From IMG/VR virus record IMGVR_UViG_3300035670_000119, positions 1 through 64,000 of that record: a stretch of 64,000 bases of DNA; one strand, written 5' to 3'. Every line of letters starts with the position of its first letter. Position 1 is the first letter of the stretch. A program made the position numbers and the translations under genes. Below the pieces are notes generated by a model. That model ran no database searches, was not told the origin of the DNA, and saw nothing but the letters and a program-made list of their open reading frames with translations. This document shows positions 1-64,000 of the stretch, one piece after another. Origin of the DNA: a virus.

Positions 1-544
1 TCTCGTAGCCAGGGTTCTTATCAATCCTGTTGCGTAGCCAAGCGTCATCGTACCAAATGATTTTGTTATTGGGGTACGCGTAAAAGTTTCCGTTGTCCAT
101 GCGGAAGAAATGTGCACACTTGTGCTCGGGCGTTTCACTGAAGTTGGTGTTAAGAGTTGACTTTGATTCCCAAGACCAATCCAAGGTAAACATATAGACG
201 CCTTGATTGCGTTCTCCTTTGTAGTTAATTAACTCTGCACGTAAGTTGGCAAGACGTGAGCGCACCTGCACATCGATATAGGGAGAGAAGCAATCCCACC
301 ACATGCACTCGTTCAACGCAGGGACTGGCGCATCTGGTTTCCAGCACAACGCATGGATTGGGCGACGGGTCCAGTTGACGCCATTCTCCAGAAACACCTC
401 AAACAAGGGGACGCGTTTCTCTAAGGAAGCTACGGAATGTACGTCGCAAGGCGTTACGTCGCCCTGACCTTGCTTGTGATTGTATAAAAACTCGTTGCGT
501 ATATAGCAAGTGAAGGTCGGTAGGTTGTGGTTGAGATATGCCAC
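1..544 (-). CDS. conserved phage hypothetical protein (partial, runs off window edge)
   Basis: Hand-translated, not in ORF track: GTG at 544, MAYLNHNLPTFTCYIRNEFLYNHKQG...WWDCFS...HKCAHFFRMDNGNFYAYPNNKIIW, open to position 1. Confidence 0.75.
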   Translation of the reverse strand, partial: MAYLNHNLPTFTCYIRNEFLYNHKQGQGDVTPCDVHSVASLEKRVPLFEVFLENGVNWTRRPIHALCWKPDAPVPALNECMWWDCFSPYIDVQVRSRLANLRAELINYKGERNQGVYMFTLDWSWESKSTLNTNFSETPEHKCAHFFRMDNGNFYAYPNNKIIWYDDAWLRNRIDKNPGYE

Positions 545-1077: not shown

Positions 1078-1548
1078 TTAAATATGATTCCAGGTCTTTC
1101 TTTTTATAATAGCCGAAATAGTTTTGTGATCTACATTAAACATTCTTCCCAACTTTCGCATGCCATATCCTTTGTCCCCGAGTTTTCTAATCTCTAAAAT
1201 CTGATCCTCTATTAATTTAGAACTACCAACTTTGCTGCCAACTGCTGATTTCTTTTCCGAAGAATTTTCTTCTAACAGCTTCCAAATAACATTGCCCGGC
1301 TGGTAATTACCTTGATCATTAAGCCGCGAAAGAACATGACCTTCAGGCCTTTCTCCCATGTCTTCCAAAAAACATTTAAAACAACGCCACCGATCGCAAA
1401 CAGTGACTCCAATAGCGCCGTAATATCTGTAACTAACACTTGATTTTAAAAAACAACGGTCATACATTGCACGCCAACTGTTGTAAGTGACTGAACGTTT
1501 TGTTTCCCCTCGTTTACCTAAGTTATGGCCGTGAATTTTTTTGGGCAT
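1078..1548 (-). CDS. HNH homing-endonuclease-like protein with C-terminal HTH
   Basis: YNSWRAMYDRC...YYGAIGVTVCDRW...FLEDMGERP...GNYQPGNVIW, plus HTH-like tail (MRKLGRMFNVDHKTISAI). Confidence 0.8.
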   Translation of the reverse strand: MPKKIHGHNLGKRGETKRSVTYNSWRAMYDRCFLKSSVSYRYYGAIGVTVCDRWRCFKCFLEDMGERPEGHVLSRLNDQGNYQPGNVIWKLLEENSSEKKSAVGSKVGSSKLIEDQILEIRKLGDKGYGMRKLGRMFNVDHKTISAIIKRKTWNHI

Positions 1549-1825
1549 TGCGCTGCTTTGCTTTTTTGGCTACTTTAGCAGCTTTCAAACCCTTTTCGTA
1601 TTCTTCTCGAGTGCTCCAATCCTCTTTGCCCCATTTCTCCAAAGACTTTTGTTTTTCTCCCTTGCCACCTTTGTAACCACCACCAGCTTCCTTGTACTCC
1701 TGTGCGACAAGCTGGGCCTTACGCGCAGACCACTGCCCAGGCTTGCCACCTTTAGAGCCTGCCATTACACGATCTTTAATGCGTTCGCGTAACTCGGGTT
1801 TTGTGTATTTATTCTCCTGAGACAT
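1523..1825 (-). CDS. DUF5872-like protein, N-terminal half
   Basis: YTKPELRERIK...GSKGGKPGQWSARKAQL...YKEAGGGYKG signature. Confidence 0.75.
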   Translation of the reverse strand: MSQENKYTKPELRERIKDRVMAGSKGGKPGQWSARKAQLVAQEYKEAGGGYKGGKGEKQKSLEKWGKEDWSTREEYEKGLKAAKVAKKAKQRNAQKNSRP

Positions 1826-4903: not shown

Positions 4904-5027
4904 GCAAGCTGTCGTCACAAAAGAAGACGCTATCGCTCTCTACAACAAAATTATGAAAGATTTCGAGGCAACTGATAAGAGAAATAAATACAGAGAACGC
5001 GAGTCCAATAAGACTCAACAATCTTAA
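4836..5027 (+). CDS. hypothetical protein
   Basis: MTPYNPNGKMECRKRLAWTIACE. Confidence 0.5.
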   Translation: MTPYNPNGKMECRKRLAWTIACEQAVVTKEDAIALYNKIMKDFEATDKRNKYRERESNKTQQS

Positions 5028-40443: not shown

Positions 40444-41064
40444 TTACATGTACTGCTTGATAGGCATGTTGCTAGAGCCATAAGACTCAGGATCAATAGC
40501 TTGTTGTGCAGCCATCTGCATGGCAGCATCTTGATTCATGCCTGGAATGCCAACCAATTGACCTGCGTTTGCAAGGCCACCGCCAATCATTCCACCAAAC
40601 CCGCCAGCGGCGGTTAAGCCGATTGGAATACCAGCAGTATTAATAAGAGCCTGAGACCGACGAAGGCCAGTCTTAAATTGATCTCTTATTTGGTCTGGAT
40701 CGCCACCTTGAGCGTTTAACTGCCGAAGCATATCGCGAACGTATTCTGCGTTCTCAATTTCAGAAGCAGACATACGAGCTTTGCGTGCAGCTGCTCCTGG
40801 ATTGTTCATGACAACAGCACCGAGGTCGCTCATTGCTTTTACAGCGCGGCCACGTAAGCCAGGAATTTGTGCACCAAGTAGAGCACCAGCTCCGCCAGCG
40901 CCAAGTGCCTCTAATCCAAGGCGGCCAGCACCTTCGTCTTGAGCTTCACCAGAAACCAGGTTTCCTAATGTAGCAAGGCCGGCGGCACCGAGGCCGCCAG
41001 CCACTGCAGAAGCAATGGGATTCCTGCTGATTGTGTTAGCGTACTTACCAGCAAGTTTAATCAT
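40444..41064 (-). CDS. Gly/Ala-rich hypothetical protein
   Basis: 206 aa between scaffold and MCP. Confidence 0.65.
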   Translation of the reverse strand: MIKLAGKYANTISRNPIASAVAGGLGAAGLATLGNLVSGEAQDEGAGRLGLEALGAGGAGALLGAQIPGLRGRAVKAMSDLGAVVMNNPGAAARKARMSASEIENAEYVRDMLRQLNAQGGDPDQIRDQFKTGLRRSQALINTAGIPIGLTAAGGFGGMIGGGLANAGQLVGIPGMNQDAAMQMAAQQAIDPESYGSSNMPIKQYM

Positions 41065-41068
41065 CGCT

Positions 41069-42031
41069 TCACTCCATCACAAACAGTTTGTTTGCAACGA
41101 CTTGAGGCTGGGCTTGGTTCAGGAGGCGCCAGGCTTGTGCAGGATCCACATCCATTTGCTGCTTGAAGGAACCCCAGAAGTTTTCAGGTTGCTGAGGAGC
41201 GGAAGCTGCGGGAGGAGCAGGGAACTGTGGCATGTAAGGATTCACAGCCTCAGTGCGGTAACCAGGGGTTTCCAGGTCGGCCTCACTTTCGTACACGGGG
41301 TACGGGCCTTCAGGACCAAAGAACCGCAAAGTGTAATCACTGAGAACGTCAGGGTTCGTCAGGATCTCGTTGTAAGCCAGGTTCTCTTGGTGCTCGTTAA
41401 CCGCGAACTCGGCATACCCTTCGATCAGGCCTTTGGCTTGGGTGCCCCAGGCAACAGCACTATCCAGCATGCCTTCCAGTTGGAGGGCATAGTTGTTCAG
41501 GATGGCAGGTGCTTCAACGCCGTACGCGCTTACCACGTGACGGGTTTCTGGACTCCACTGGAGCAGATCCGCTACGTCCCCCAAGGATTGAACCGAGAAG
41601 GTTTGGGAAGAGCTGGGCGAGGATGTCGGGTTGGCTTGCCAGGTCTGCGGAGCCGATTGTTGCGTAGCTGGGCCTACTTGCTGGCCGTAGTTCGCCGGGG
41701 CGTACTGAGTCGGCGCTACTGATGGTTGACCCTGGAACGGGGATTGAACTGGTGCGCTCAGAAGGCCCACCACTTTGTTGAACGCCGATTCCCACGGATT
41801 GCTCTGAGTCGCCGGTTGGGATTGGGGGGCGTACTGAGTAGGGGCTGATTGGTAGCTGGGGGCTGCCTGCGGTACTGCTTGGGGGTAGCTGGTACCCACC
41901 TGATACGCCACTGGAGCTGCCTGGTAGCTCGCCGGCGCTTGCGCTGGAGCTGGTGCCACGTAGCTGCTCGGAGCCACCGCTGCCGGAACTTGGCTCGTCT
42001 GTGGGATCGATTGGACGGTAGCGTCCTGCAT
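41069..42031 (-). CDS. putative scaffolding protein
   Basis: P/Q/A-rich; AAGGAG Shine-Dalgarno 7 nt before ATG; position after portal. Confidence 0.65.
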   Translation of the reverse strand: MQDATVQSIPQTSQVPAAVAPSSYVAPAPAQAPASYQAAPVAYQVGTSYPQAVPQAAPSYQSAPTQYAPQSQPATQSNPWESAFNKVVGLLSAPVQSPFQGQPSVAPTQYAPANYGQQVGPATQQSAPQTWQANPTSSPSSSQTFSVQSLGDVADLLQWSPETRHVVSAYGVEAPAILNNYALQLEGMLDSAVAWGTQAKGLIEGYAEFAVNEHQENLAYNEILTNPDVLSDYTLRFFGPEGPYPVYESEADLETPGYRTEAVNPYMPQFPAPPAASAPQQPENFWGSFKQQMDVDPAQAWRLLNQAQPQVVANKLFVME

Positions 42032-56500: not shown

Positions 56501-57004
56501 TGGAACGGCAACAGCTTGATCTGTAGATGAGGTACTGCGTTGTTTTTCTTCCAGGCGGCGCTGAAGAAATTGTTGGGCACCAGAGTTTACTGTTTCGTTA
56601 CGTACGTCAGCTACAGGGGGCTCCTTGGATTCTTGTACGTCAACTAAGGTTTCCTCTGGAACTTCCGGTACATCTTCCTGTGGACGGTAACGTGCGCCCG
56701 CTGCAGTCTCTAAATCGGTAAAAGTGACGCCTGACTTACCAGGCTGCTTAGGAATATCAGTAACACCACGGTCCTGAAGCAGTTTACGCACCCCATAAGC
56801 ACCTGCACCAAGGCCAGCAGCCGCTAAACCAAGGCCAATGCCCACCGAAACAGGGTCAATGCCCTCAGATTGGGGTGCTTTTAGCTGATTACGGCGAAAT
56901 TCCAGAACTTCTGGGGCCATCTGCGCCCTTTCTTCCGGATCTTCGGGTACTGGAACCCCGGTTGCACGGCTATAAGCGTAAAAATCAGCGGGTGCCAGTG
57001 CCAT
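53573..57004 (-). CDS. large hypothetical protein (first gene of late operon)
   Basis: 1143 aa; hydrophobic Gly-rich helix near the N-terminus. Confidence 0.7.
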   Translation of the reverse strand: MALAPADFYAYSRATGVPVPEDPEERAQMAPEVLEFRRNQLKAPQSEGIDPVSVGIGLGLAAAGLGAGAYGVRKLLQDRGVTDIPKQPGKSGVTFTDLETAAGARYRPQEDVPEVPEETLVDVQESKEPPVADVRNETVNSGAQQFLQRRLEEKQRSTSSTDQAVAVPQEERIYAPSSVLPAARRPLREEKILDRLASEQALLEQPIFSKRAWNEGTSLSPSRQMPEGIVNYPSSLKNVYEGEEVNVLGPSSPMRETFSAFAQIDPEMVDRQIQNVLNDTELSPGQKEGAIYNLQRLKQASEGVRGEAGTTALALSRKGKLPYTELLDEPISGIRGEMREVVNPAYAEAMKNYWERRSAELPHTITDYEKRKAAGLLNYQLPEAQRDSRNRAQTFGGWDKATSEALQEIYESEVGDIPQYITELRPARGEEARARLGEQEEYTGPLQKYFEKERPSGSTQPRDRAYLPVYQPEVYPAMRKINGQMVGFPSYNLSSLTAESRQSPIRYKGAETGNIIDTVPMAVDALTENEIAPGVIGQFKTTEIVHAPLQRVELVTDPDSGKTKPRLVNFNIRLDAEVSPYAAALVGVPPLTSIQNAVQSIKDIHGDDYETINRKVNVLLKNTVGDTPIMTQRPFDQYDESRRQFINMLSGASYETQQKGFLVGVNGEKLPYTGPQTKGKSAVQNEQNRRTNIIEAQRQLSNTIESSLKQQGLDPEEISKRTQTLVSQYLPGFDESGVITSAKPQISSPERQLSGQPLPDIMQKSATGENVRSAYYARLEPSMGGAVSSQLRTLLKSGAQVSTDPPGTPGAKVTYKMGDKTVSYPRNQLIETLKRENQDALNIAELTGITLKGEGEVVSGPYQTLSSRQTGQPNVSPTQRPAKPGFYYNEFGELIQEPITSSFTGPARFAAGPASDVLSGDYPQGGSRLSVRTSPSAELQEYNRYRLAAAAEATPGGRMVRGAQQLGQGIGAIPAGLGALTESQVLERYGASGSQLQQIGNQLMAQAAYKRGQQPGATQVGVKTGERNIPMGTAGERTYGPIPPPQQGPAVSTLGTSANREIAGYERRVTGPQLSIPGMLTERPASGYTPNSALDFYEKALAREAQQLASQSTPQRMVRRQGKMVPMAQANRPVQRNVFFPRG

Positions 57005-57125
57005 TTGTTTATTGTTGCGCGTTAAAGTTGTCCTTCTTTGTATTTTAAAGGAAAGAATTTGTAAAACACTACGTAAGTTAGACTGTTAACAAGAAAAACA
57101 CAGCGACAAGCAACGTAAAAAAGTC

Positions 57126-57335
57126 ATGAACCCTAAAACGCAGATGGAAAGGGGAATTGCACTCAAGGCAATTGCCAGCAAAGCACGAGAACTGCAAGAT
57201 AAAGGAGTCAGTGGCTTAGCTGTAGATCAATTTTTAATTGGTGCCAGGCAAAAATTGGCGGAAGAGCGCCCTGATGTAGAAGCACACGCTAAGGCCGCGG
57301 CTGCATCTAACAAATGGATGGCACAAAACCGTTAA
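57126..57335 (+). CDS. hypothetical protein
   Basis: 69 aa; TAGACT box at 57079. Confidence 0.6.
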   Translation: MNPKTQMERGIALKAIASKARELQDKGVSGLAVDQFLIGARQKLAEERPDVEAHAKAAAASNKWMAQNR

Positions 57336-57367
57336 GAAGAGTAAAAATATTTTTTAATATTTTTTAC

Positions 57368-57391
57368 CGGGGGCTAAAACCCCCGTTTTTT
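57368..57391 (+). terminator. intrinsic terminator
   Basis: CGGGGG-ctaaaa-CCCCCG followed by a T run. Confidence 0.7.
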
Positions 57392-57604
57392 GTGTAATTT
57401 TTTGGTGTAAGCAGTTGTTACCCATACATTTTTTGCAAAAATTGGCCCTATAGGGGTCCAAAAAGGATAAAAAATTATCTGACGCTTCTTCAACACCATG
57501 CGCGTAGTGAATTGCGTATAGAAAAAAAGAAAGGTGTGGTGGGTTAAATAATTTATCGGGGGCTGCGCATCCGTGTAACGCAGGTATTCCATCGCTTTAG
57601 ATCA

Positions 57605-57916
57605 ATGCAGTTGACGAAGGAAGAGCAGAAGGTTGTCGAGTTTGACGACCGTTGTCAGATGGTGGCAAGTTATCTATGGGAAGGTAAGTCTGTCACGATG
57701 ACTGCGAAGCAGCTTGAGTGGTATGACGTGACGCCGCACCAAGTGATAGCGGAGCTGAGCGGTTGGCTTCGTTCGGAAGAGCAAGAAGCCTGCTGGGAAG
57801 CGGAGCATTTGTATCGTGGCAGCCGCCGTGAGCGTACACATGTTGTCTATTGCACCAAGCAAGGTGACAAGTATGTGTTCAAGGCGAAGGTTGTCAAGGT
57901 AGCTAACTACGTTTGA
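57605..57916 (+). CDS. hypothetical early protein
   Basis: 103-aa ORF. Confidence 0.6.
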   Translation: MQLTKEEQKVVEFDDRCQMVASYLWEGKSVTMTAKQLEWYDVTPHQVIAELSGWLRSEEQEACWEAEHLYRGSRRERTHVVYCTKQGDKYVFKAKVVKVANYV

Positions 57917-57928
57917 CGGTTAACTCTT

Positions 57929-57956
57929 CCCCTGGTGAGAGCCAGGGGTTTATTTA
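57929..57956 (+). terminator. intrinsic terminator
   Basis: CCCCTGGT-gaga-GCCAGGGG followed by TTTATTT. Confidence 0.7.
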
Positions 57957-58049
57957 GCCCTCAAAGCTATGCTTCTAGACGCATAAACGCATTCTGTACA
58001 GTCTGTACATCGCGCGCGCGTACTTTTGGGCTACATCTGCTGCCTGTTC

Positions 58050-58126
58050 AGGCAGGACAGTCGCGCCGCAAGGGATCTCAGCGATTAATCGTCAAGCTGG
58101 ACGTTAAACGTAGCCTTGTCCTACCT
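58050..58126 (+). ncRNA. multibranch leader RNA containing a UAAAC pseudoknot
   Basis: Outer stem 58050-58060/58116-58126; TCGC/GCGA arm with GCAA loop; CGTC-aagctg-GACG-ttaaac-gTAGC. Confidence 0.45.
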
Positions 58127-58137
58127 AATTCAACACC

Positions 58138-58299
58138 ATGACTTACACCGTTATCATCAAGCATCACGACGTATTCTCTCAGTCTTATCTCCAGGGCTGT
58201 GAGCAATCGTTTGACACTGAGCAGCAAGCTCAGGATTACATTCAAACATTTGAGGATTGGGAACAAGATCTTCTGGAGATTGATTTCAATCCTTTCTGA
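58138..58299 (+). CDS. hypothetical early protein (53 aa)
   Basis: Hand-translated MTYTVIIKHHDVFSQSYLQG...FNPF. Confidence 0.55.
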   Translation: MTYTVIIKHHDVFSQSYLQGCEQSFDTEQQAQDYIQTFEDWEQDLLEIDFNPF

Positions 58300-58339
58300 G
58301 TAACAGGCGTGATGCCGGGGGATCGAATCCCCCACTCAG
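58296..58339 (+). ncRNA. T-loop-containing three-way mini-RNA
   Basis: CTGAGT/ACTCAG stem; GGC-gtgat-GCC; GGGGG-atcgaat-CCCCC. Confidence 0.45.
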
Positions 58340-58380
58340 TATTGCCACAATTCAGTGGCATTTACCTACACCACACGACC

Positions 58381-58569
58381 GTGATCAAAGCACAGAACGT
58401 CTACGCACTCATCATCATCCAGGCATTTGCCATGGGTATTATCGCTGGTCCAGTTGCTGGATACTTCATTGATAAGGCAACTGCCAAGCAATGCATTACT
58501 CACGACTGGCCGAAGGAGGCCGATCAAATCCACCGTGATTGGTGCGTCACTAACGGCTACAAGATCTAA
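58381..58569 (+). CDS. small membrane protein
   Basis: TM helix followed by QCITHDWP...WC..NGY. Confidence 0.6.
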   Translation: MIKAQNVYALIIIQAFAMGIIAGPVAGYFIDKATAKQCITHDWPKEADQIHRDWCVTNGYKI

Positions 58570-58641
58570 GACTCCTGCTCTGGGGACTACGGTCCCCTCA
58601 ACAGGACTCAACATCCTGTATCCCACTGCTCATTCAACACC

Positions 58642-58851
58642 ATGTCAATGATTAAGAACTGCACTGTCGTACTTTCCAACGGCAACGTCGTTGGGATGCA
58701 TGCAAACGAAGCAGATGCAGAAATGCAAGCAATGGAGCTGGCATACGAATGGCGCAGACAATCTGACTGTGGCTCCGAGGTACCAGCACCTAAGCTTGCC
58801 GTCCTGTCATTCAATGACTGGATGCAACTGCAGAAAGAGTTTGCATTCTGA
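58642..58851 (+). CDS. hypothetical early protein
   Basis: A/C-rich leader, 69 aa. Confidence 0.6.
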   Translation: MSMIKNCTVVLSNGNVVGMHANEADAEMQAMELAYEWRRQSDCGSEVPAPKLAVLSFNDWMQLQKEFAF

Positions 58852-58945
58852 TTCCTGCACTTAACCCTTCCATTGTGGTACATATGTACTACGACGGTAG
58901 GTTTTCTGCAGGCAATCAAGTCTGCTATCCAACTCAACTCAGCTC

Positions 58946-59134
58946 ATGACTGCACTACACATCCGCAAGAACATTGCTGCTGCACTGTTTAACACAGCGG
59001 CAGCTATTGACAATGCCAAGCTTCCTACCAAGGAAGATATCGGTACTAAGGTGAATGAGTATCGGCTGCGTGCAGCGGCACTCATGATGCCGAACGATAT
59101 GGCATTCGTCATCACTCCTAAGCAAGGCAACTGA
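58946..59134 (+). CDS. hypothetical early protein
   Basis: A/C-rich leader, 62 aa. Confidence 0.6.
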   Translation: MTALHIRKNIAAALFNTAAAIDNAKLPTKEDIGTKVNEYRLRAAALMMPNDMAFVITPKQGN

Positions 59135-59136
59135 TC

Positions 59137-59340
59137 ATGCACCGTAATTACTTTTCTGACTCCTGTGTCGCTCTTATTCTTGGCTCTGGCTTGGGTTTAC
59201 TGTTATCTGTTGGAGCACAGAAGCTTCTCAACAGACACTACCAAGCAACGTGCCATGACAGACCAGGACACAATCTGATCTACGTCCAAGGATTCCTTGG
59301 CGATACGTACTACTGCATCAACAGTAAGTATATCAACTGA
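59137..59340 (+). CDS. small membrane protein
   Basis: TM helix plus GDTYYCI. Confidence 0.6.
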   Translation: MHRNYFSDSCVALILGSGLGLLLSVGAQKLLNRHYQATCHDRPGHNLIYVQGFLGDTYYCINSKYIN

Positions 59341-59432
59341 TCTCTGCACTTTCCCATCATATCCATTGGATGTGATGGGTTCCTGCAGGGCTTAGCTCTG
59401 CATACACCACACGACACCACCAGGACTCAACC

Positions 59433-59678
59433 ATGACTCCTAAAGCTGTTGAATATCTCCTGACCCAAGACGCTCGTCTGCTAGCCAGGAGAGATGCCCC
59501 TTGCATCGACCAAGAACTTGAGGCGCAGCGCCAAGCTGCTCTTGAATTGTTCTTCGAGTGGCAAGACGGTATGCGTCAATTCCAAGACCTTGTTCCCTTC
59601 GTTGCCATCGTGCAGCGTAAGGTAGATCTCAACCGGGATCTGCTTCGTTGGGAACGCAGGCAACTGGAACAAGATTGA
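59433..59678 (+). CDS. hypothetical early protein
   Basis: 81 aa. Confidence 0.6.
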   Translation: MTPKAVEYLLTQDARLLARRDAPCIDQELEAQRQAALELFFEWQDGMRQFQDLVPFVAIVQRKVDLNRDLLRWERRQLEQD

Positions 59679-59752
59679 CGACTACACTGAGGGGCTTCGG
59701 CCCTTCTCTGTAGTCTTCATCAAGAAGGCTACGTACCACTGCACACAACACT

Positions 59753-60016
59753 ATGGCAGTTTCAATTGACCATCACGACATCACAGCAGCCCTTAATAAA
59801 TTCAACCTTGAGGTAACTGATTATTATCTTGAGTTTGCTGATGATGTCATCTATATGTACTGGGTAGCATGCCCGGCAGATATAGAACACTACATCAAAG
59901 AAGACACTGGTTGCCTTGCGATTCAGATTAAAGGCAAGTGGTTCTATCTGGATGAATCCCGACCGGACACTGAGCGTCCGTTTGTTAACTGTCGTTATAT
60001 CTTGGAGACAATCTGA
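59753..60016 (+). CDS. hypothetical early protein
   Basis: 87 aa. Confidence 0.6.
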   Translation: MAVSIDHHDITAALNKFNLEVTDYYLEFADDVIYMYWVACPADIEHYIKEDTGCLAIQIKGKWFYLDESRPDTERPFVNCRYILETI

Positions 60017-60222
60017 TGAAGACGATTTATTCAATGGGGAGAGGCAAATACATCCACCTCGATTCTTACGGTGAGTCTCATGGGACTCGCCGTTGGTCAG
60101 TTGGTATTGCCCTCTTCTCCATCGTCATCGCCGCCATCACTGCCACCGCACTGGTGGACGTTGACATCACTGATCCTTCACTGAAACAACACCATGTCAT
60201 TCACAATCGCATTGGTTACTGA
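60016..60222 (+). CDS. small membrane protein
   Basis: Coupled (TGATG); TM helix. Confidence 0.55.
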   Translation: MKTIYSMGRGKYIHLDSYGESHGTRRWSVGIALFSIVIAAITATALVDVDITDPSLKQHHVIHNRIGY

Positions 60223-60418
60223 CCGGAGTGGGCGTTATGCTCACGTCTGGGGAGAACCAAGGAGCTGGAATCAATTCGTTGAACAGCTCGAAGATGCTGG
60301 CTGCGAAGTGATTGAAAACCAGACCGAAGATTGGGAAGGGTCTACCAGGGATGAAGTCGCTGAAGACTGCTTGACAGTTCATCAGCTACTGCACGACACT
60401 GACTTCATTCCCCACTAA
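60194..60418 (+). CDS. hypothetical early protein
   Basis: 74 aa, acidic. Confidence 0.6.
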   Translation: MSFTIALVTDRSGRYAHVWGEPRSWNQFVEQLEDAGCEVIENQTEDWEGSTRDEVAEDCLTVHQLLHDTDFIPH

Positions 60419-60420
60419 AC

Positions 60421-60475
60421 ACCTGGGCATCCACAATTGAGAACTCTTCTCAATAACGTGGTGTAAGTCCCAGGT
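60421..60475 (+). ncRNA. CA/GUAAGU internal-loop RNA element, copy 1
   Basis: ACCTGGG-CA-[stem-loop]-GTAAGT-CCCAGGT. Confidence 0.65.
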
Positions 60476-60503
60476 CCAACCGTTCACTTACTCAACTTAC
60501 ACC

Positions 60504-60686
60504 ATGAGAGACCCTAACTTCATTGATGAACAACGTAACGCTGACTTGCTTGATACCATGGCTGATGTGGCATATCAACAAGAGCAAGCCATGCGTGAAG
60601 CGTTTGAAGAACATCAAGAACAATGGATGATGCGTGAATTGAATCTCAACTTATTTGAACAGGAGACCTACGATGACCAAGCCTAA
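60504..60686 (+). CDS. hypothetical early protein
   Basis: 60 aa. Confidence 0.6.
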   Translation: MRDPNFIDEQRNADLLDTMADVAYQQEQAMREAFEEHQEQWMMRELNLNLFEQETYDDQA

Positions 60687-61086
60687 GTACACACTGCGTC
60701 AAGCATGGGATGACGGTGACATTATCGTCATCCTGATCGCAATCATTTCAATCATCATCACTGAATTCGCATCATGTCTTACATCTCAGAACTCAAGAAG
60801 TTCTACCCCAAGACCTACAAAGTCCGCTTTGCAATCAACGCCTACAACACACACAAGTATTTCGAACACGAAAATCCAACGGTCATCACCGTGCACGAAA
60901 CCTGCCTCCGTTATGGAGGACCCGAAGAAGGAGGCTGGTGGTTCCAGCAAGGTAACCCGGTCCTCAGCCACTGCATCTTCTCCAAGAAGCAAGCGATCCA
61001 AACCTACGTCAAGTACTTCGAAGAGTACAAGATCGAAGGGCAGCCGTCTCTTGGAGATACAACAACTAGCTCCAACATCGAGCTAA
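60673..61086 (+). CDS. membrane-anchored protein with tail overlapping next gene
   Basis: AGGAG upstream; TM IIVILIAIISIII, then S/T/K-rich tail. Confidence 0.45.
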   Translation: MTKPKYTLRQAWDDGDIIVILIAIISIIITEFASCLTSQNSRSSTPRPTKSALQSTPTTHTSISNTKIQRSSPCTKPASVMEDPKKEAGGSSKVTRSSATASSPRSKRSKPTSSTSKSTRSKGSRLLEIQQLAPTSS

Positions 61087-61142
61087 GTTTTTCCAACAGG
61101 TATGCAGAGGTGTACCCTAAGACGCGTCCCCATTACTGCTGA
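60774..61142 (+). CDS. hypothetical early protein
   Basis: YGGPEEGGWW...PHYC motif. Confidence 0.7.
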   Translation: MSYISELKKFYPKTYKVRFAINAYNTHKYFEHENPTVITVHETCLRYGGPEEGGWWFQQGNPVLSHCIFSKKQAIQTYVKYFEEYKIEGQPSLGDTTTSSNIELSFSNRYAEVYPKTRPHYC

Positions 61143-61147
61143 GATTC

Positions 61148-61390
61148 ATGCTTGCCACTGCAGTACCAGCACTCAGTATCAATCAACGTAACCTCTATGC
61201 TTACTTCTTGAACCACAAGAAGAAGTATGGGAACACACCATGCTTTGTACCAAGGCTTCCGTCACAGGCCTCAAGGCTTGAGCAATATCTTCAAGCCTTG
61301 GTAAGGCTAGAGGAATACGGATTGATACGTGTAGACAGAAGCGTTGATAACTACACAGGCTGGATGATGCTAGAACCTAAGGCCACATAA
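61148..61390 (+). CDS. winged-helix-like hypothetical protein
   Basis: LSINQRNLY...ALVRLEEYGLIRV. Confidence 0.55.
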   Translation: MLATAVPALSINQRNLYAYFLNHKKKYGNTPCFVPRLPSQASRLEQYLQALVRLEEYGLIRVDRSVDNYTGWMMLEPKAT

Positions 61391-61467
61391 CGTAATAACA
61401 GTGCCGTAGTATTGGATGGCATGTAAGAATTGCCAATACATGCCAATACTTCAGTTATAGTCTCAAT

Positions 61468-61508
61468 CCTGGGCAGCACTGACGTAAGTACGGTGCGTAA
61501 GTCCCAGG
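61468..61508 (+). ncRNA. CA/GUAAGU internal-loop RNA element, copy 2
   Basis: CCTGGG-CA-GCACTG...CGGTGC-GTAAGT-CCCAGG. Confidence 0.65.
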
Positions 61509-61511
61509 CTT

Positions 61512-61739
61512 TTATCCGACTGTATTACGTACATCAGGTGTAAACCTTTGCATCTGATCTAACAACCTAAGCTCTGCTTGTTTGTTTTGTATCGGAATGC
61601 TTTCATTTCTTATAACAGATGTTAAGAAGTCCATTACTTTATCTTGAGGTGGCATAGAACCATGTGCCTTCATGTATTCTTGTTGCCACCCTTGAAGGAA
61701 TGGACTATTGGCCATTGCATATCTACCAGCTAATAACAT
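61512..61739 (-). CDS. hypothetical protein, inverted relative to its cluster
   Basis: 75-aa ORF filling the gap between two RNA elements. Confidence 0.55.
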   Translation of the reverse strand: MLLAGRYAMANSPFLQGWQQEYMKAHGSMPPQDKVMDFLTSVIRNESIPIQNKQAELRLLDQMQRFTPDVRNTVG

Positions 61740-61766
61740 GGACCTGAGTATGTCCTTAAACTACTC
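61740..61766 (+). ncRNA. UAAAC H-type pseudoknot
   Basis: GGAC-ctGAGTAt-GTCC-ttaaac-TACTC. Confidence 0.55.
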
Positions 61767-61807
61767 AGTCCATCATACTCATCATCAACCTCAACTCCAC
61801 ATCAACC

Positions 61808-62083
61808 ATGACCTACCCCGAAATCGACTGGAAGAAGAACGAGTACAAGCAATTGGAAGAAGCTTTGGACATACTCAAAGCTGTCATCGAACGTGAATCA
61901 AAGCGTCATCAAATGGATGAGCACTTAGTTCCAGGAGATAATGATATTGTCCAAGAAGCAATCGGTTTGCTTGAAGAGATCATTGACTATGACCCGACAC
62001 CTAACGAGCCTGGTGAACCTCCCATGACAATGGACGAAATGCACAGTGCTGCATGGAAAGAACACCAGGAGATGCACCGGTAA
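61808..62083 (+). CDS. hypothetical early protein
   Basis: 91 aa; DYDPTP...EPPMT. Confidence 0.65.
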   Translation: MTYPEIDWKKNEYKQLEEALDILKAVIERESKRHQMDEHLVPGDNDIVQEAIGLLEEIIDYDPTPNEPGEPPMTMDEMHSAAWKEHQEMHR

Positions 62084-62234
62084 CAGCCAACTAGGGGGGA
62101 CTAGTACATAAGTACTTCCCCCCACACCCCCCGACAGAGTACCAGGGAATCCTTGGATTTATATAGGACATACTTATGTTCCATTCCCTTGACTCCCTGG
62201 TAGACTGTCCTTGTTAATCAACTCATCTCAACCC

Positions 62235-62447
62235 ATGACTACTCCCAACACTCCACGTATACCTGACTCTCTTGACATGCAAAGACTTCAAGCTATGCAA
62301 CTTGTTGCAAAGATGAAGGAATCAGCAGAGAGAAATGGTATTGGATTCATTGGTGGATTCATTGCTCCGAATGGAGAGAAGTTTGTCATGACCAACATGA
62401 CAGACGAAGATGACATCAATGCACTCATGCCGGAGGATCTTAAGTGA
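62235..62447 (+). CDS. hypothetical early protein
   Basis: MTTPNTP...; TAGACT box at about 62200. Confidence 0.6.
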   Translation: MTTPNTPRIPDSLDMQRLQAMQLVAKMKESAERNGIGFIGGFIAPNGEKFVMTNMTDEDDINALMPEDLK

Positions 62448-62779
62448 ATCAATCTCATCCCGTTATTCCAACCGAGTACCTGCTTGATGCTTGGCATCAG
62501 CAACATCAACGATACAGAAAGAGCTTCAAAGAAATTCTTATTGAAGCTGCCCAATGGGGAGCTGATACAGAATTAGAAGAATGTTGTAAGCTATTCGAAT
62601 CTAATTCTGTATGTGGCACCAAGTTTCAGCGGAGATCTTCTGTTCGAGATCTACGTGAAAAGCGTAGACCTTCACCCAAGCAAAAGACATTGACAGTGTC
62701 AATCACTGGTACTGAAGATGAACTTGAACAACTCATTCGCAAACTCAAACATGAACAACAAATCTCGATTGAACTTTGA
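62444..62779 (+). CDS. cyanophage hypothetical protein (AAQWGAD-type)
   Basis: AAQWGADTELEECC. Confidence 0.65.
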   Translation: MNQSHPVIPTEYLLDAWHQQHQRYRKSFKEILIEAAQWGADTELEECCKLFESNSVCGTKFQRRSSVRDLREKRRPSPKQKTLTVSITGTEDELEQLIRKLKHEQQISIEL

Positions 62780-62948
62780 CAAAACTATCGCAGGATTCAA
62801 CATTACCGAGCGCGGTGTGCGCTCGTACAGTAAATCAATTAAGCTTGGTCCATTCCAAGTAACACTTAACGCACGTGAGTCTGGCTTACGTGGTACCATT
62901 GGTATCCCTGGCACAGGCGTTTCAATTCCAAACATTAAGCTAATCTAA
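62751..62948 (+). CDS. DUF4236-like protein
   Basis: SKSIKLGP...TIGIPGTGVS. Confidence 0.6.
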   Translation: MNNKSRLNFDKTIAGFNITERGVRSYSKSIKLGPFQVTLNARESGLRGTIGIPGTGVSIPNIKLI

Positions 62949-63012
62949 AGATCTGGGCATCCGAAAGCAACGCCGCGTCCAGGACACGCCGTAGGTGTAA
63001 GTCCCAGATCTT
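62948..63012 (+). ncRNA. CA/GUAAGU internal-loop RNA element, copy 3
   Basis: AAGATCTGGG-CA-TCC...GGT-GTAAGT-CCCAGATCTT. Confidence 0.65.
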
Positions 63013-63034
63013 GTCCACTAACTCAACTCAACTC

Positions 63035-63220
63035 ATGTCTGCTTACGTCGAAAACCTCACCTTGTTTGATCGCATCAATCTTGCTGCCTGCGCACAGCGC
63101 AGAGCAACAGAAAATGTGTTGGATTCAACACGATTCAATGGCGAGTTTGACACAGCACGTCTGTGGATGAAGTATCGCCTTGTCAAGTACAGCAACTATT
63201 CATTTATCGAGGGCAACTGA
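63035..63220 (+). CDS. hypothetical early protein
   Basis: ACTCA-repeat leader; MSAYVENL. Confidence 0.6.
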   Translation: MSAYVENLTLFDRINLAACAQRRATENVLDSTRFNGEFDTARLWMKYRLVKYSNYSFIEGN

Positions 63221-63471
63221 TGACAGTCTTAGCAATCGAAAACACTTCATTCACTGACACTCATGTCACAGTTACAGCAGTTGTTGACGAGATGCGCCTG
63301 CTCTATCGCGGAAGTCGTCTCGACCCTGAAGAGTGGGCTCCTGCATTGTGTCAAGCAACTATTGAGTTGGATCCAGAGGAACAAATCCCTCTTGATGAAG
63401 ATGGCTTCTGTGCCTATCTTGATCACCTCGATCCTCAATGGCAAGTACTAGATCCGGAGGACATCGGATGA
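63220..63471 (+). CDS. hypothetical early protein
   Basis: Coupled; DPEEWAPALC. Confidence 0.65.
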   Translation: MTVLAIENTSFTDTHVTVTAVVDEMRLLYRGSRLDPEEWAPALCQATIELDPEEQIPLDEDGFCAYLDHLDPQWQVLDPEDIG

Positions 63472-63653
63472 TTGGCTTCTCAATTGAATTCAAACGTTGG
63501 TACTTTGTACTACGTGGTCCTAAGGGTCGTGTGTACTTGGCAACTGGCTTTGCTAAACGCATGCCAGTCATAACGCCGATTGGCACCTATGACATGGAAC
63601 AGTACATCGAAGAGACGTCACTGTTCTTAGATATACATCGGTACGAAGACTGA
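63468..63653 (+). CDS. hypothetical early protein
   Basis: GGAGG Shine-Dalgarno; MIGFSIEF. Confidence 0.6.
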   Translation: MIGFSIEFKRWYFVLRGPKGRVYLATGFAKRMPVITPIGTYDMEQYIEETSLFLDIHRYED

Positions 63654-63657
63654 TCAC

Positions 63658-63685
63658 ACGTCCTGGACATGACGTTAAACTGTCT
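63658..63685 (+). ncRNA. UAAAC H-type pseudoknot
   Basis: ACGTC-ctGGACAt-GACGT-taaac-TGTCT. Confidence 0.55.
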
Positions 63686-63708
63686 ATTTCATTTACTCAT
63701 TTAACCCA

Positions 63709-64000
63709 ATGGAAATCAATTCTCCAACGCCACCTTTAGATCTTGTTAATGATTGGATGACGCATTGGTATGACGACAATCAAACCGATGATACCCAAGA
63801 AATGTACATTGCAACTAAGGCTGCAATGTGGGGTGCTATCTGGGGTGCTACTAATGCGTTAGAAACAGCTATCAAAGACACATCTCCTGTTCACTGGCGT
63901 GTAGCCGGTGGTGCAGAAGATGGTCAGCAAATAGTACGTGTTATTGATCTAATGGAATGGCTTGCACAATTCCGTAAAGAATATGAGGAGAAGATCAATG
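63709..64000 (+). CDS. hypothetical protein (partial; resembles 62444..62779)
   Basis: Hand-translated MEINSPTPPLDLVNDW...YIATKAAMWGA. Confidence 0.6.
   Translation, partial: MEINSPTPPLDLVNDWMTHWYDDNQTDDTQEMYIATKAAMWGAIWGATNALETAIKDTSPVHWRVAGGAEDGQQIVRVIDLMEWLAQFRKEYEEKIN

Follow-up and report, generated by a model that had tools for sequence, protein, structure and literature searches.

What might a tiny, invariant RNA loop do in the gaps between phage genes? The question is raised by a 64,000-nucleotide stretch of viral DNA (positions 1-64,000 of IMG/VR record IMGVR_UViG_3300035670_000119, i.e. the first 64 kb of an 85.9-kb virus record; hereafter the window), in which three gaps carry the same hairpin-forming element, with CTGGGCA on its 5' side and GTAAGTCCCAG on its 3' side. 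Positions beyond 64,000 are record coordinates. A first-pass annotation of the window sequence had described this element as a fixed asymmetric loop on a variable scaffold, had recognised no named family in it and had suggested a site of protein binding, cleavage or catalysis. We place the element among the intercistronic structured RNA signals of phages, and find that tRNAs occupy the same kind of place in related operons. It is quite possible, if short of probable, that the element serves as intercistronic punctuation in RNA, marking or protecting the ends left by processing with the help of some partner, probably from the host. In what follows we set out the evidence for its structure, spread and position, and weigh this reading against several others.

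An invariant loop on a covarying hairpin

A search of the window for CTGGGCA-N(10..40)-GTAAGTCCCAG returned exactly three matches, all on the plus strand (60423-60473, 61469-61507 and 62953-63007), compared with none in 100 dinucleotide-preserving shuffles, and these are the three copies that the first-pass annotation had placed there. Each is predicted to fold as an outer stem (P1), a 2 x 6 internal loop and an inner hairpin (P2; Table 1), and all three fall in gaps between plus-strand open reading frames (ORFs). The inserts of copies 1, 2 and 3 measure 33, 21 and 37 nt, which agrees with the inner arm of 21-37 nt described earlier, and the outer-stem extensions that had been listed can likewise be read in the sequence: AC/GT (60421-22 / 60474-75), C/G (61468 / 61508) and AAGAT/ATCTT (62948-52 / 63008-12). 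On the plus strand, copy 1 folds at -23.5 kcal/mol (z -5.0) and copy 2, whose P2 contains one U.G pair, at -19.6 (z -2.7); the z-score of copy 3 is -2.1. The record holds two further copies beyond the window, 66251-66290 (CTTGG/CCAAG) and 66672-66698 (CTAGG/CCTAG), and their outer-stem changes are compensatory.

Across the wider family, both stems covary. In 119 distinct aligned copies, 90% of cells are paired, and changes on both sides of a pair are seen in 49 cells as against 8.0 in shuffles, a value that none of 500 shuffles reached; sliding the partners by one column lowers pairing to about 62%. The P1 classes among unique copies are CTGGG/CCCAG (96), CTTGG/CCAAG (20), CTAGG/CCTAG (8) and ATGGG/CCCAT (5). 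When the loop letters were left free, the first 5' position, C, and the UAAG of the 3' side remained constant among clear members, while substitutions are seen at the remaining three (A>G,C,U; G>A>U; U>C>G). The description of a fixed loop on a variable scaffold thus holds well beyond the window, with compensatory change in both stems across more than 100 distinct copies around an invariant C...UAAG.

The pattern of substitutions also indicates which molecule folds. In 118 of 121 copies, 0-3 pairs are added to the 5 bp of P1, and two or more extra pairs occur in 36% of copies, compared with about 14% estimated for random flanks. Because these extensions are commoner than chance, a single molecule beginning further upstream must contain the whole hairpin. 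Inside P2, G.U combinations outnumber A.C by 21 to 5, and the closing position of P2 has 11 GT/TG and no AC/CA; this excess identifies the sense strand as the strand selected to fold.

Pairing of the loop GUAAGU with the downstream leader, as a pseudoknot or alternative hairpin, was considered and rejected, as [CT]TTAC is present in 29/121 leaders and the reversed control gives the same 29/121. In a by-eye comparison with the consensus sequences of the kink-turn, loop E, the tetraloop receptor and the ribosomal protein S8 site, none fits both strands, and the partial likeness of the UAAG strand to named internal-loop modules is no more than a lead.

Spread among phage lineages

In a scan of IMG/VR, the exact core was found in at least 119 viral contigs; this count and that for cellular genomes are lower bounds, and redundancy among near-identical contigs was reduced only through sequence identity of each copy plus flanks. 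A covariance model (R1) built from 41 minimal copies gave 178 matches at E<=0.01 in 100 of the exact-core loci. The closest named relative of the window, Synechococcus phage S-EIVl (about 70% identity over 18% of a 4-kb query), is a cultured phage, and it has two intergenic copies according to the covariance model, at 41433-41481 and 40723-40790 of its record. The commonest form is only 28 nt long, with a 3-bp inner stem and a tetraloop: 55 of the 162 matches listed, which were not de-replicated, have the corresponding 10-nt insert. Longer inner hairpins with every kind of sequence are also present. Five complete genomes carry 1-7 copies each, on one strand and within about 6-10 kb.

Copies also occur outside the S-EIV1-like group, in lineages with which it has no proteins in common across the sampled neighbourhoods (loci of at most 15 kb); lineages were labelled A-D according to the similarity of their flanks and the protein clusters they share. 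The motif precedes a lambda-E-type major capsid gene in lineage B, follows a gene beside a gpA-type terminase in the G+C-rich contigs of lineage A, and adjoins a terminase in a third group, lineage C. The core is kept in these lineages even so, and the loop is under strong selection.

The first-pass annotation had proposed a search of phage and cyanobacterial genomes. Among the exact-core matches listed from 596 Gb of cellular genomes, 6 of 121 have three closing P2 pairs, as against 60 of 95 distinct viral inserts, and none has the tetraloop form; these cellular matches look like chance. A model search of 151 cyanobacterial genomes (the phylum of a Lyngbya metagenome-assembled genome) gave only two borderline matches, one of them a U-tailed, terminator-like hairpin. 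Rfam 15 yielded no match at gathering thresholds over the whole window, and the nine weak matches at E<=10 on 60300-63200 overlap none of the copies, in line with the earlier failure to recognise a family. We found the element undescribed in Rfam and in the searchable literature, which did not cover the original S-EIV1 paper, the first Syn5 polymerase paper or supplementary files.

Two ideas that depend on host sequence are affected by these results. A CRISPR-repeat mimic, that is, an RNA anti-CRISPR, was rejected, as no family-like copy is present among the 121 cellular exact-core matches listed and the cyanobacterial genomes hold only the two borderline matches. The element could also divert a host nuclease or defence protein, as a decoy or sponge RNA expressed from free intergenic space, and its restriction to phages, its presence in several lineages and its many copies in highly transcribed regions would suit such a role. 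However, the two borderline cyanobacterial matches leave no evident target that it might mimic, and a decoy does not predict the tight spacing to start codons and tRNAs described below, so that we consider this explanation highly improbable.

Position between genes

Gene calls were made with a greedy longest-ORF heuristic and are crude. By these calls, 164 of 210 copies are intergenic; both flanking genes lie on the motif strand in 125 cases and both on the opposite strand in 5. The median distance from the upstream stop codon to the start of the copy is 7 nt; in 68 of 121 de-replicated copies the first ATG lies between +25 and +34, and the intervening leader averages 10% G at +5 to +30 across the family. 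The consensus directly past P1, G-C-U-U-U, fits the preference of RNase E. In the window, copy 1 begins 4 nt past the stop of ORF 60194-60418, and the extended P1 of copy 3 starts on the final base of the stop codon of ORF 62718-62948; copy 2 sits 78 nt past ORF 61148-61390, and after it come GCTTTTAT and next a possible minus-strand ORF, 61512-61739. The proteins encoded downstream belong to 72 different clusters, so the element is not a gene-specific leader.

The first-pass annotation had named, as the alternative to an RNA element, a DNA repeat with no strand bias or conserved structure. Both features are present, the former as the 125 same-strand and 5 opposite-strand copies. Neither this outcome nor a match to a known Rfam family, the two that it had named as refuting, was observed. 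Furthermore, a DNA repeat resembling repetitive extragenic palindromes (REP) or bacterial interspersed mosaic elements needs both orientations and occurrence in host chromosomes, and was rejected given this orientation and the chance-like cellular matches.

Intrinsic terminators and REP-type stabiliser hairpins are, like the element, stable hairpins just past stop codons. They differ from it in that a U-tract follows only 10 of 121 de-replicated copies, the gene orientation is fixed and the sequence of the internal loop is conserved. An intrinsic terminator was rejected on the scarcity of U-tracts and because none of the three copies appears in a terminator scan of 57000-64000. A broader proposal is that of a generic stabiliser or terminator hairpin, acting with no specific partner and keeping its loop by descent or through a particularly stable fold; it would account for the unrelated hairpins that occupy the same slot in other gaps of the operon and for the U-run after some copies (e.g. 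the L072, L076 and L096 types). Besides the few U-tracts, however, its core is identical in lineages with no detectable likeness of proteins or flanks while P2 and the flanks are free to vary, which makes descent alone insufficient, and an internal loop of 2 x 6 nt makes a hairpin less stable, not more so. We therefore judge this proposal improbable.

A sigma-70-type promoter just upstream of the copies was rejected: TAnnnT is mildly enriched at -14 to -11 (25/123, compared with 5 for a control pattern) and overlaps stop codons and related sequences. A TATAAT-like box in lineage B proved not to be conserved, and a consensus promoter scan of 57000-64000 found 4 promoter-like sites, fewer than the shuffle mean of 10.8. 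Separately, four loci of a separate lineage (L051, L067, L072 and L109) share a conserved box, AATGCGCACC, in the 25 nt that immediately precede the motif; in three of these loci TTGAYAGT comes after the box.

A slot shared with tRNAs

At 21 loci, the motif ends 3-5 nt upstream of the 5' end of a tRNA. In 20 of these the tRNA is tRNA-Leu(UAA), mostly with the CTTGG/CCAAG class, as in the record itself, where copy 66251-66290 precedes tRNA-Leu(UAA) at 66294-66369. The remaining case is a tRNA-Asn that lies 5 nt past the motif in locus L067 of lineage C, a lineage sharing no protein cluster with the rest. Motif-preceded tRNAs make up 21 of the 34 tRNAs found in the loci, and none of the tRNAs found there shows the reverse order, tRNA then motif.

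Comparison of orthologous gaps shows that the element can be exchanged for other structures. Upstream of orthologues of the 63035 gene, which follows copy 3, the motif is present in 21 of 22 distinct regions. For the 60504 gene it is present in 13 of 19 distinct regions, and five of the other six have an element of a second type, GTCC-TTAAAC (see below). For the 61808 gene the motif is found in 14 of 19, the window itself and one of five motif-free relatives having the GTCC-TTAAAC type in that slot. For the 66725 gene the figure is 8 of 25, and in 16 of the other 17 a tRNA-Leu stands directly before the leader. Among the early-region gaps listed that measure at least 35 nt, most have a predicted hairpin and, after it, a leader of similar kind. 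Since the slot is filled by the motif, a tRNA or another structured element, what it calls for is an RNA structure, tRNA included. Together, tRNA adjacency and interchangeability point to the definition of RNA ends rather than to gene-specific regulation.

This arrangement recalls tRNA punctuation, as known from mitochondria and phage tRNA clusters, in that the element takes the tRNA slot at orthologous positions and abuts tRNAs. Unlike a tRNA, it is not tRNA-shaped and has unpaired bases on its 3' strand, and ARAGORN calls the neighbouring tRNA only.

Adjacency to tRNAs might also be expected of a new minimal self-cleaving ribozyme that frees the downstream tRNA or mRNA, since hepatitis delta virus (HDV)-like ribozymes flank phage tRNAs. 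Invariant nucleotides within a small internal loop would suit a catalyst, and independence of protein would fit the element's portability between unrelated phages. Against this, its anatomy is limited to two stems and a single loop, tertiary contacts are not detectable (P2 loops vary freely, and loop-flank complementarity is no better than in the reversed control), and the spacing to the tRNA varies between 3 and 5 nt, so that cutting at a fixed distance would in some cases miss the mature end. No Rfam ribozyme family matches, and the known self-cleaving classes were rejected because none of their Rfam models does so. Of the three roles suggested in the first-pass annotation, catalysis seems the least likely, given a two-stem, one-loop anatomy that has no counterpart among the self-cleaving classes in Rfam; we give the ribozyme a very small probability.

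A further possibility is that the element is a nascent-RNA binding site for an elongation or translation regulator, either a nut- or put-like antitermination site or a translational operator, acting on the mRNA or tRNA downstream. An invariant loop on a variable scaffold, a position upstream of both mRNAs and tRNAs, several copies per operon (1-7 per complete genome, on one strand over about 6-10 kb) and the conserved box directly before the motif in lineage C are all compatible with it. Known translational operators overlap the ribosome-binding region, however, and the element ends 25-34 nt before the ATG with no such overlap. The put and nut sites number one or two per genome and are promoter-proximal, which also counts against the proposal, as does the fact that no terminator pattern has emerged downstream, and the interchangeability with tRNAs would be left unexplained. 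We regard a regulator site as unlikely, though it deserves some weight.

The RNase III sites of phage T7 offer another comparison, being multi-copy, sense-strand intercistronic hairpins with an internal loop and a leader of roughly 25-35 nt. There are differences as well. The minimal copies have only 5-8 + 3 bp, too short for RNase III, which needs about two helical turns of stem, and nothing in RNase III recognition corresponds to the invariant UAAG. Run with filters off on the whole T7 genome (V01146), R1 gave a best E of 0.33, inside a gene, and no similarity to the T7 sites. A T7-type RNase III site was rejected on the shortness of the minimal form and this lack of similarity.

Likeness to the Syn5 promoter

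A rival of a different kind places the signal in DNA. Here the element would be a hairpin-form promoter or priming site related to the promoters of T7-like cyanophage RNA polymerases, with a start at the G of TAAG, and it might be served either by a very divergent polymerase or by one that a co-infecting podovirus brings in. According to PMC3950665, the promoter of the Syn5 single-subunit RNA polymerase is given as ATTGGGCACCCGTAA followed by the initiating G(+1). We located it at 4931 and 44799 of the Syn5 genome (EF372997). TGGGCA and GTAAG are common to the motif and this promoter, in identical order, and minimal copies with a GTAA tetraloop read TGGGCATCCGTAAG, matching the Syn5 promoter at 13 of 14 positions. 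When the two are aligned, the invariant G10 G11 C12 falls at about -11 to -9 and TAAG at about -3 to +1, which are the positions that T7-like enzymes read, as known from T7. The layout of stop codon, motif, leader and ATG is also that of T7 promoters, phage N4 provides a precedent for hairpin promoters, and both signals lie upstream of genes in phages of Synechococcus.

The differences are nonetheless substantial. The two Syn5 promoters are contiguous, whereas the motif's halves lie 9-45 nt apart with a covarying hairpin between them; the motif does not contain the contiguous 15-bp promoter with its initiating G, and only the GTAA-tetraloop copies reach 13/14. P1 pairs the would-be -14 to -10 with +3 to +7 across the start site and extends further, for which a duplex promoter has no need, and a 3-bp hairpin would be unable to extrude from duplex DNA. 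The sense-strand G.T excess (21 + 11, as against 5 + 0 for A.C) opposes an N4-type hairpin on the template strand, where these would be A.C mismatches. Replacement by tRNAs fits a role in RNA, and Syn5 itself has no hairpin copy.

Nor was a cognate polymerase gene found. A search for the PF00940 RNA polymerase covered 49 motif-bearing viral records, of which 7 are at least 90% complete, as well as 4 further motif-bearing records, the window's record and S-EIVl, and detected it in none of them; Syn5, as the fiftieth record, served as the positive control (4e-77). The long ORFs show no two-barrel catalytic motif and no second polymerase motif B. For an N4-type virion RNA polymerase, polymerase motifs are likewise missing from the long ORFs, and there are large ORFs with no Pfam, PDB or Atlas match. 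We assign the DNA-level signal a low probability.

A proposed model of punctuation at RNA ends

We return to the reading that we tentatively favor, in which the element punctuates polycistronic messages. In this reading it is a cis-acting structured RNA transcribed within these messages, with a fold made of P1 (CUGGG/CCCAG, often extended), an asymmetric internal loop whose 5' strand is C-N and whose 3' strand is R-UAAG-Y, and a variable P2 that can be as small as 3 bp and a tetraloop. It fills the slot between the end of one cistron and the next G-poor leader of roughly 25-35 nt, and endonucleolytic cuts beside it would release the units. The fold, the strand that folds, the position, the tie to tRNAs and the exchange with other elements rest on the comparisons above; cleavage, protection and a partner are what we propose. 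Where a tRNA lies 3-5 nt downstream, the cut could be made by RNase P, leaving the hairpin 3-5 nt from the new 3' end; elsewhere an RNase E-type or other nuclease may cut in the U-rich stretch often found past P1. The compact hairpin would remain at the new 3' end, and possibly at the 5' end, as an exonuclease barrier, and the C/UAAG loop, being invariant, would either dock a conserved partner or adopt a special tertiary fold. The invariance of the loop suggests such a specific partner or fold, and a partner from the host is more likely because unrelated phages share the motif and we found no phage-encoded candidate.

Several observations weigh against this proposal. A plain exonuclease barrier requires no invariant loop, and punctuation does not explain the likeness to the Syn5 promoter. 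Nothing in the record presents itself as the partner: ten neighbouring small ORFs gave no informative match in Pfam and PHROG and no partner protein, and a search of the record found no encoded RNase III or double-stranded RNA-binding domain. The large ORFs match a primase, glycosyltransferase, collagen-like protein, terminase, PcfJ-like protein, ThyX, DNA polymerase A, SSB and a ferritin-like protein, among which there is nothing RNA-related, and a 1143-aa ORF has no match in Pfam, PDB or Atlas. Called ORFs contain 46 of the 210 copies; about 20 of these are tRNA-linked copies that run into the 3' end of a genuine ORF lying upstream. In phage gene blocks the orientation of genes is confounded with the direction of replication, so that strand bias by itself would permit a role in single-stranded DNA, on the lagging-strand template. 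Since the minus strand, or reverse complements, fold about equally well, folding energy is silent on the strand and does not favor the plus strand. Finally, the distant members were all found with the exact core as bait, and the invariance of the core is therefore partly a matter of ascertainment, which a relaxed scan and the model search mitigate only in part.

A stronger form of the punctuation model is that the element is a portable mark standing in for a tRNA, with its C/UAAG loop recognised by a universal tRNA- or mRNA-processing nuclease, or with the 28-nt core cleaving or shielding itself. We consider this form distinctly unlikely. If it were true, unrelated phages could cut and stabilise polycistronic messages at defined points while encoding no factor of their own. 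In a bolder variant, the split Syn5-type promoter within the element would give these phages the use of an RNA polymerase from co-infecting T7-like cyanophages.

These considerations bear on a widespread group of viruses. S-EIV1-lineage cyanophages are reported to recruit many freshwater metagenome reads (PMC8790148). In the literature we found no characterisation of gene expression in this lineage. The element is a compact and strongly constrained RNA signal, in an early operon that has several interchangeable kinds of structured RNA, tRNAs included. What sets it apart is the combination of a tiny invariant loop, spread over phage lineages, equivalence of slot with tRNAs and a cultured carrier phage; the presence of copies in S-EIVl makes the question directly testable. 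If the elements do define RNA ends, they would be a counterpart in bacterial viruses of tRNA punctuation, and also a 28-nt portable part for the control of RNA processing and stability in cyanobacteria.

Neighbouring genes and other structured elements

The copies in the window lie within a run of small plus-strand ORFs of unknown function, which adjoins a long minus-strand block with a terminase, a collagen-like protein and other large ORFs. Table 1 collects the coordinates. One of its entries, the match at 1712-1740, was rejected as a sixth member, being a probable false positive inside a 100-aa ORF (1523-1825, minus strand) with a protein-like translation.

Table 1. Hairpin copies, their parts and leaders, and other elements in the window and record.
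Feature	Position	Strand	Remarks
Copy 1	60421-60475	+	exact core; R1 E 8e-10
Copy 1, parts	P1 60421-60427 / 60469-60475; CA 60428-60429; P2 60430-60462; GTAAGT 60463-60468	+	P2 33 nt
Leader of copy 1	60476-60503	+	G-poor, unstructured; runs to ATG at 60504
Copy 2	61468-61508	+	exact core; R1 E 1.9e-9
Copy 2, parts	P1 61468-61473 / 61503-61508; CA 61474-61475; P2 61476-61496; GTAAGT 61497-61502	+	P2 21 nt
Copy 3	62948-63012	+	exact core; R1 E 1.2e-10
Copy 3, parts	P1 62948-62957 / 63003-63012; CA 62958-62959; P2 62960-62996; GTAAGT 62997-63002	+	P1 10 bp; P2 37 nt
Leader of copy 3	63013-63034	+	G-poor; ATG at 63035 (ORF call)
Doubtful model match	1712-1740	-	R1 E 6.7e-4; loop variant GTAAGG; weak 3-bp P2
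GGAC..GTCC/TTAAAC element	61757-61790		window
GGAC..GTCC/TTAAAC element	63660-63690		window
GGAC..GTCC/TTAAAC element	64257-64290		record
GGAC..GTCC/TTAAAC element	71644-71670		record

The second intergenic family has a GGAC..GTCC stem followed by TTAAAC and a covarying second stem, and it occupies the same slot before the leader. It substitutes for the CUGGG/UAAG hairpin at orthologous positions, and the copy of one relative contains CTGGGCA. A third family is found in the same kind of slot at 58570-59752, where the hairpins in three or four gaps share a conserved basal stem, CTRCA/TGYAG, and each precedes a G-poor leader about 20-33 nt long. The start of the plus-strand operon (57336-58137) has terminator-like hairpins with U-tracts at 57368-57385 and 57929-57948, as well as long structured non-coding stretches of 269 and 221 nt.

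Two long plus-strand frames are open and overlap at 60673-61086 and 60774-61142. The 122-aa frame 60774-61142 looks globular, and the longer one is rich in Ser, Thr, Pro and Lys and is probably non-coding; at 60673-61142, longest-ORF calling picks the wrong frame.

A 78-aa ORF (record 66067-66303; with the tRNA, 2067-2369 in locus L249) reads in frame through a hairpin copy, and its stop codon falls within the acceptor stem of tRNA-Leu(UAA). The frame is kept, with codon-like variation upstream and a 6-nt difference in inner-stem length in relatives. To judge by this arrangement, RNase P processing at the 66294 tRNA would leave the message of the 78-aa ORF with no stop codon.

In seven G+C-rich loci with a gpA-type terminase (L015, L028, L039, L049, L108, L005 and L117), the 75 nt past the motif show a long run of GGC-rich short repeats with CGGC/GGCA units, which may be a protein-binding array near the packaging genes.

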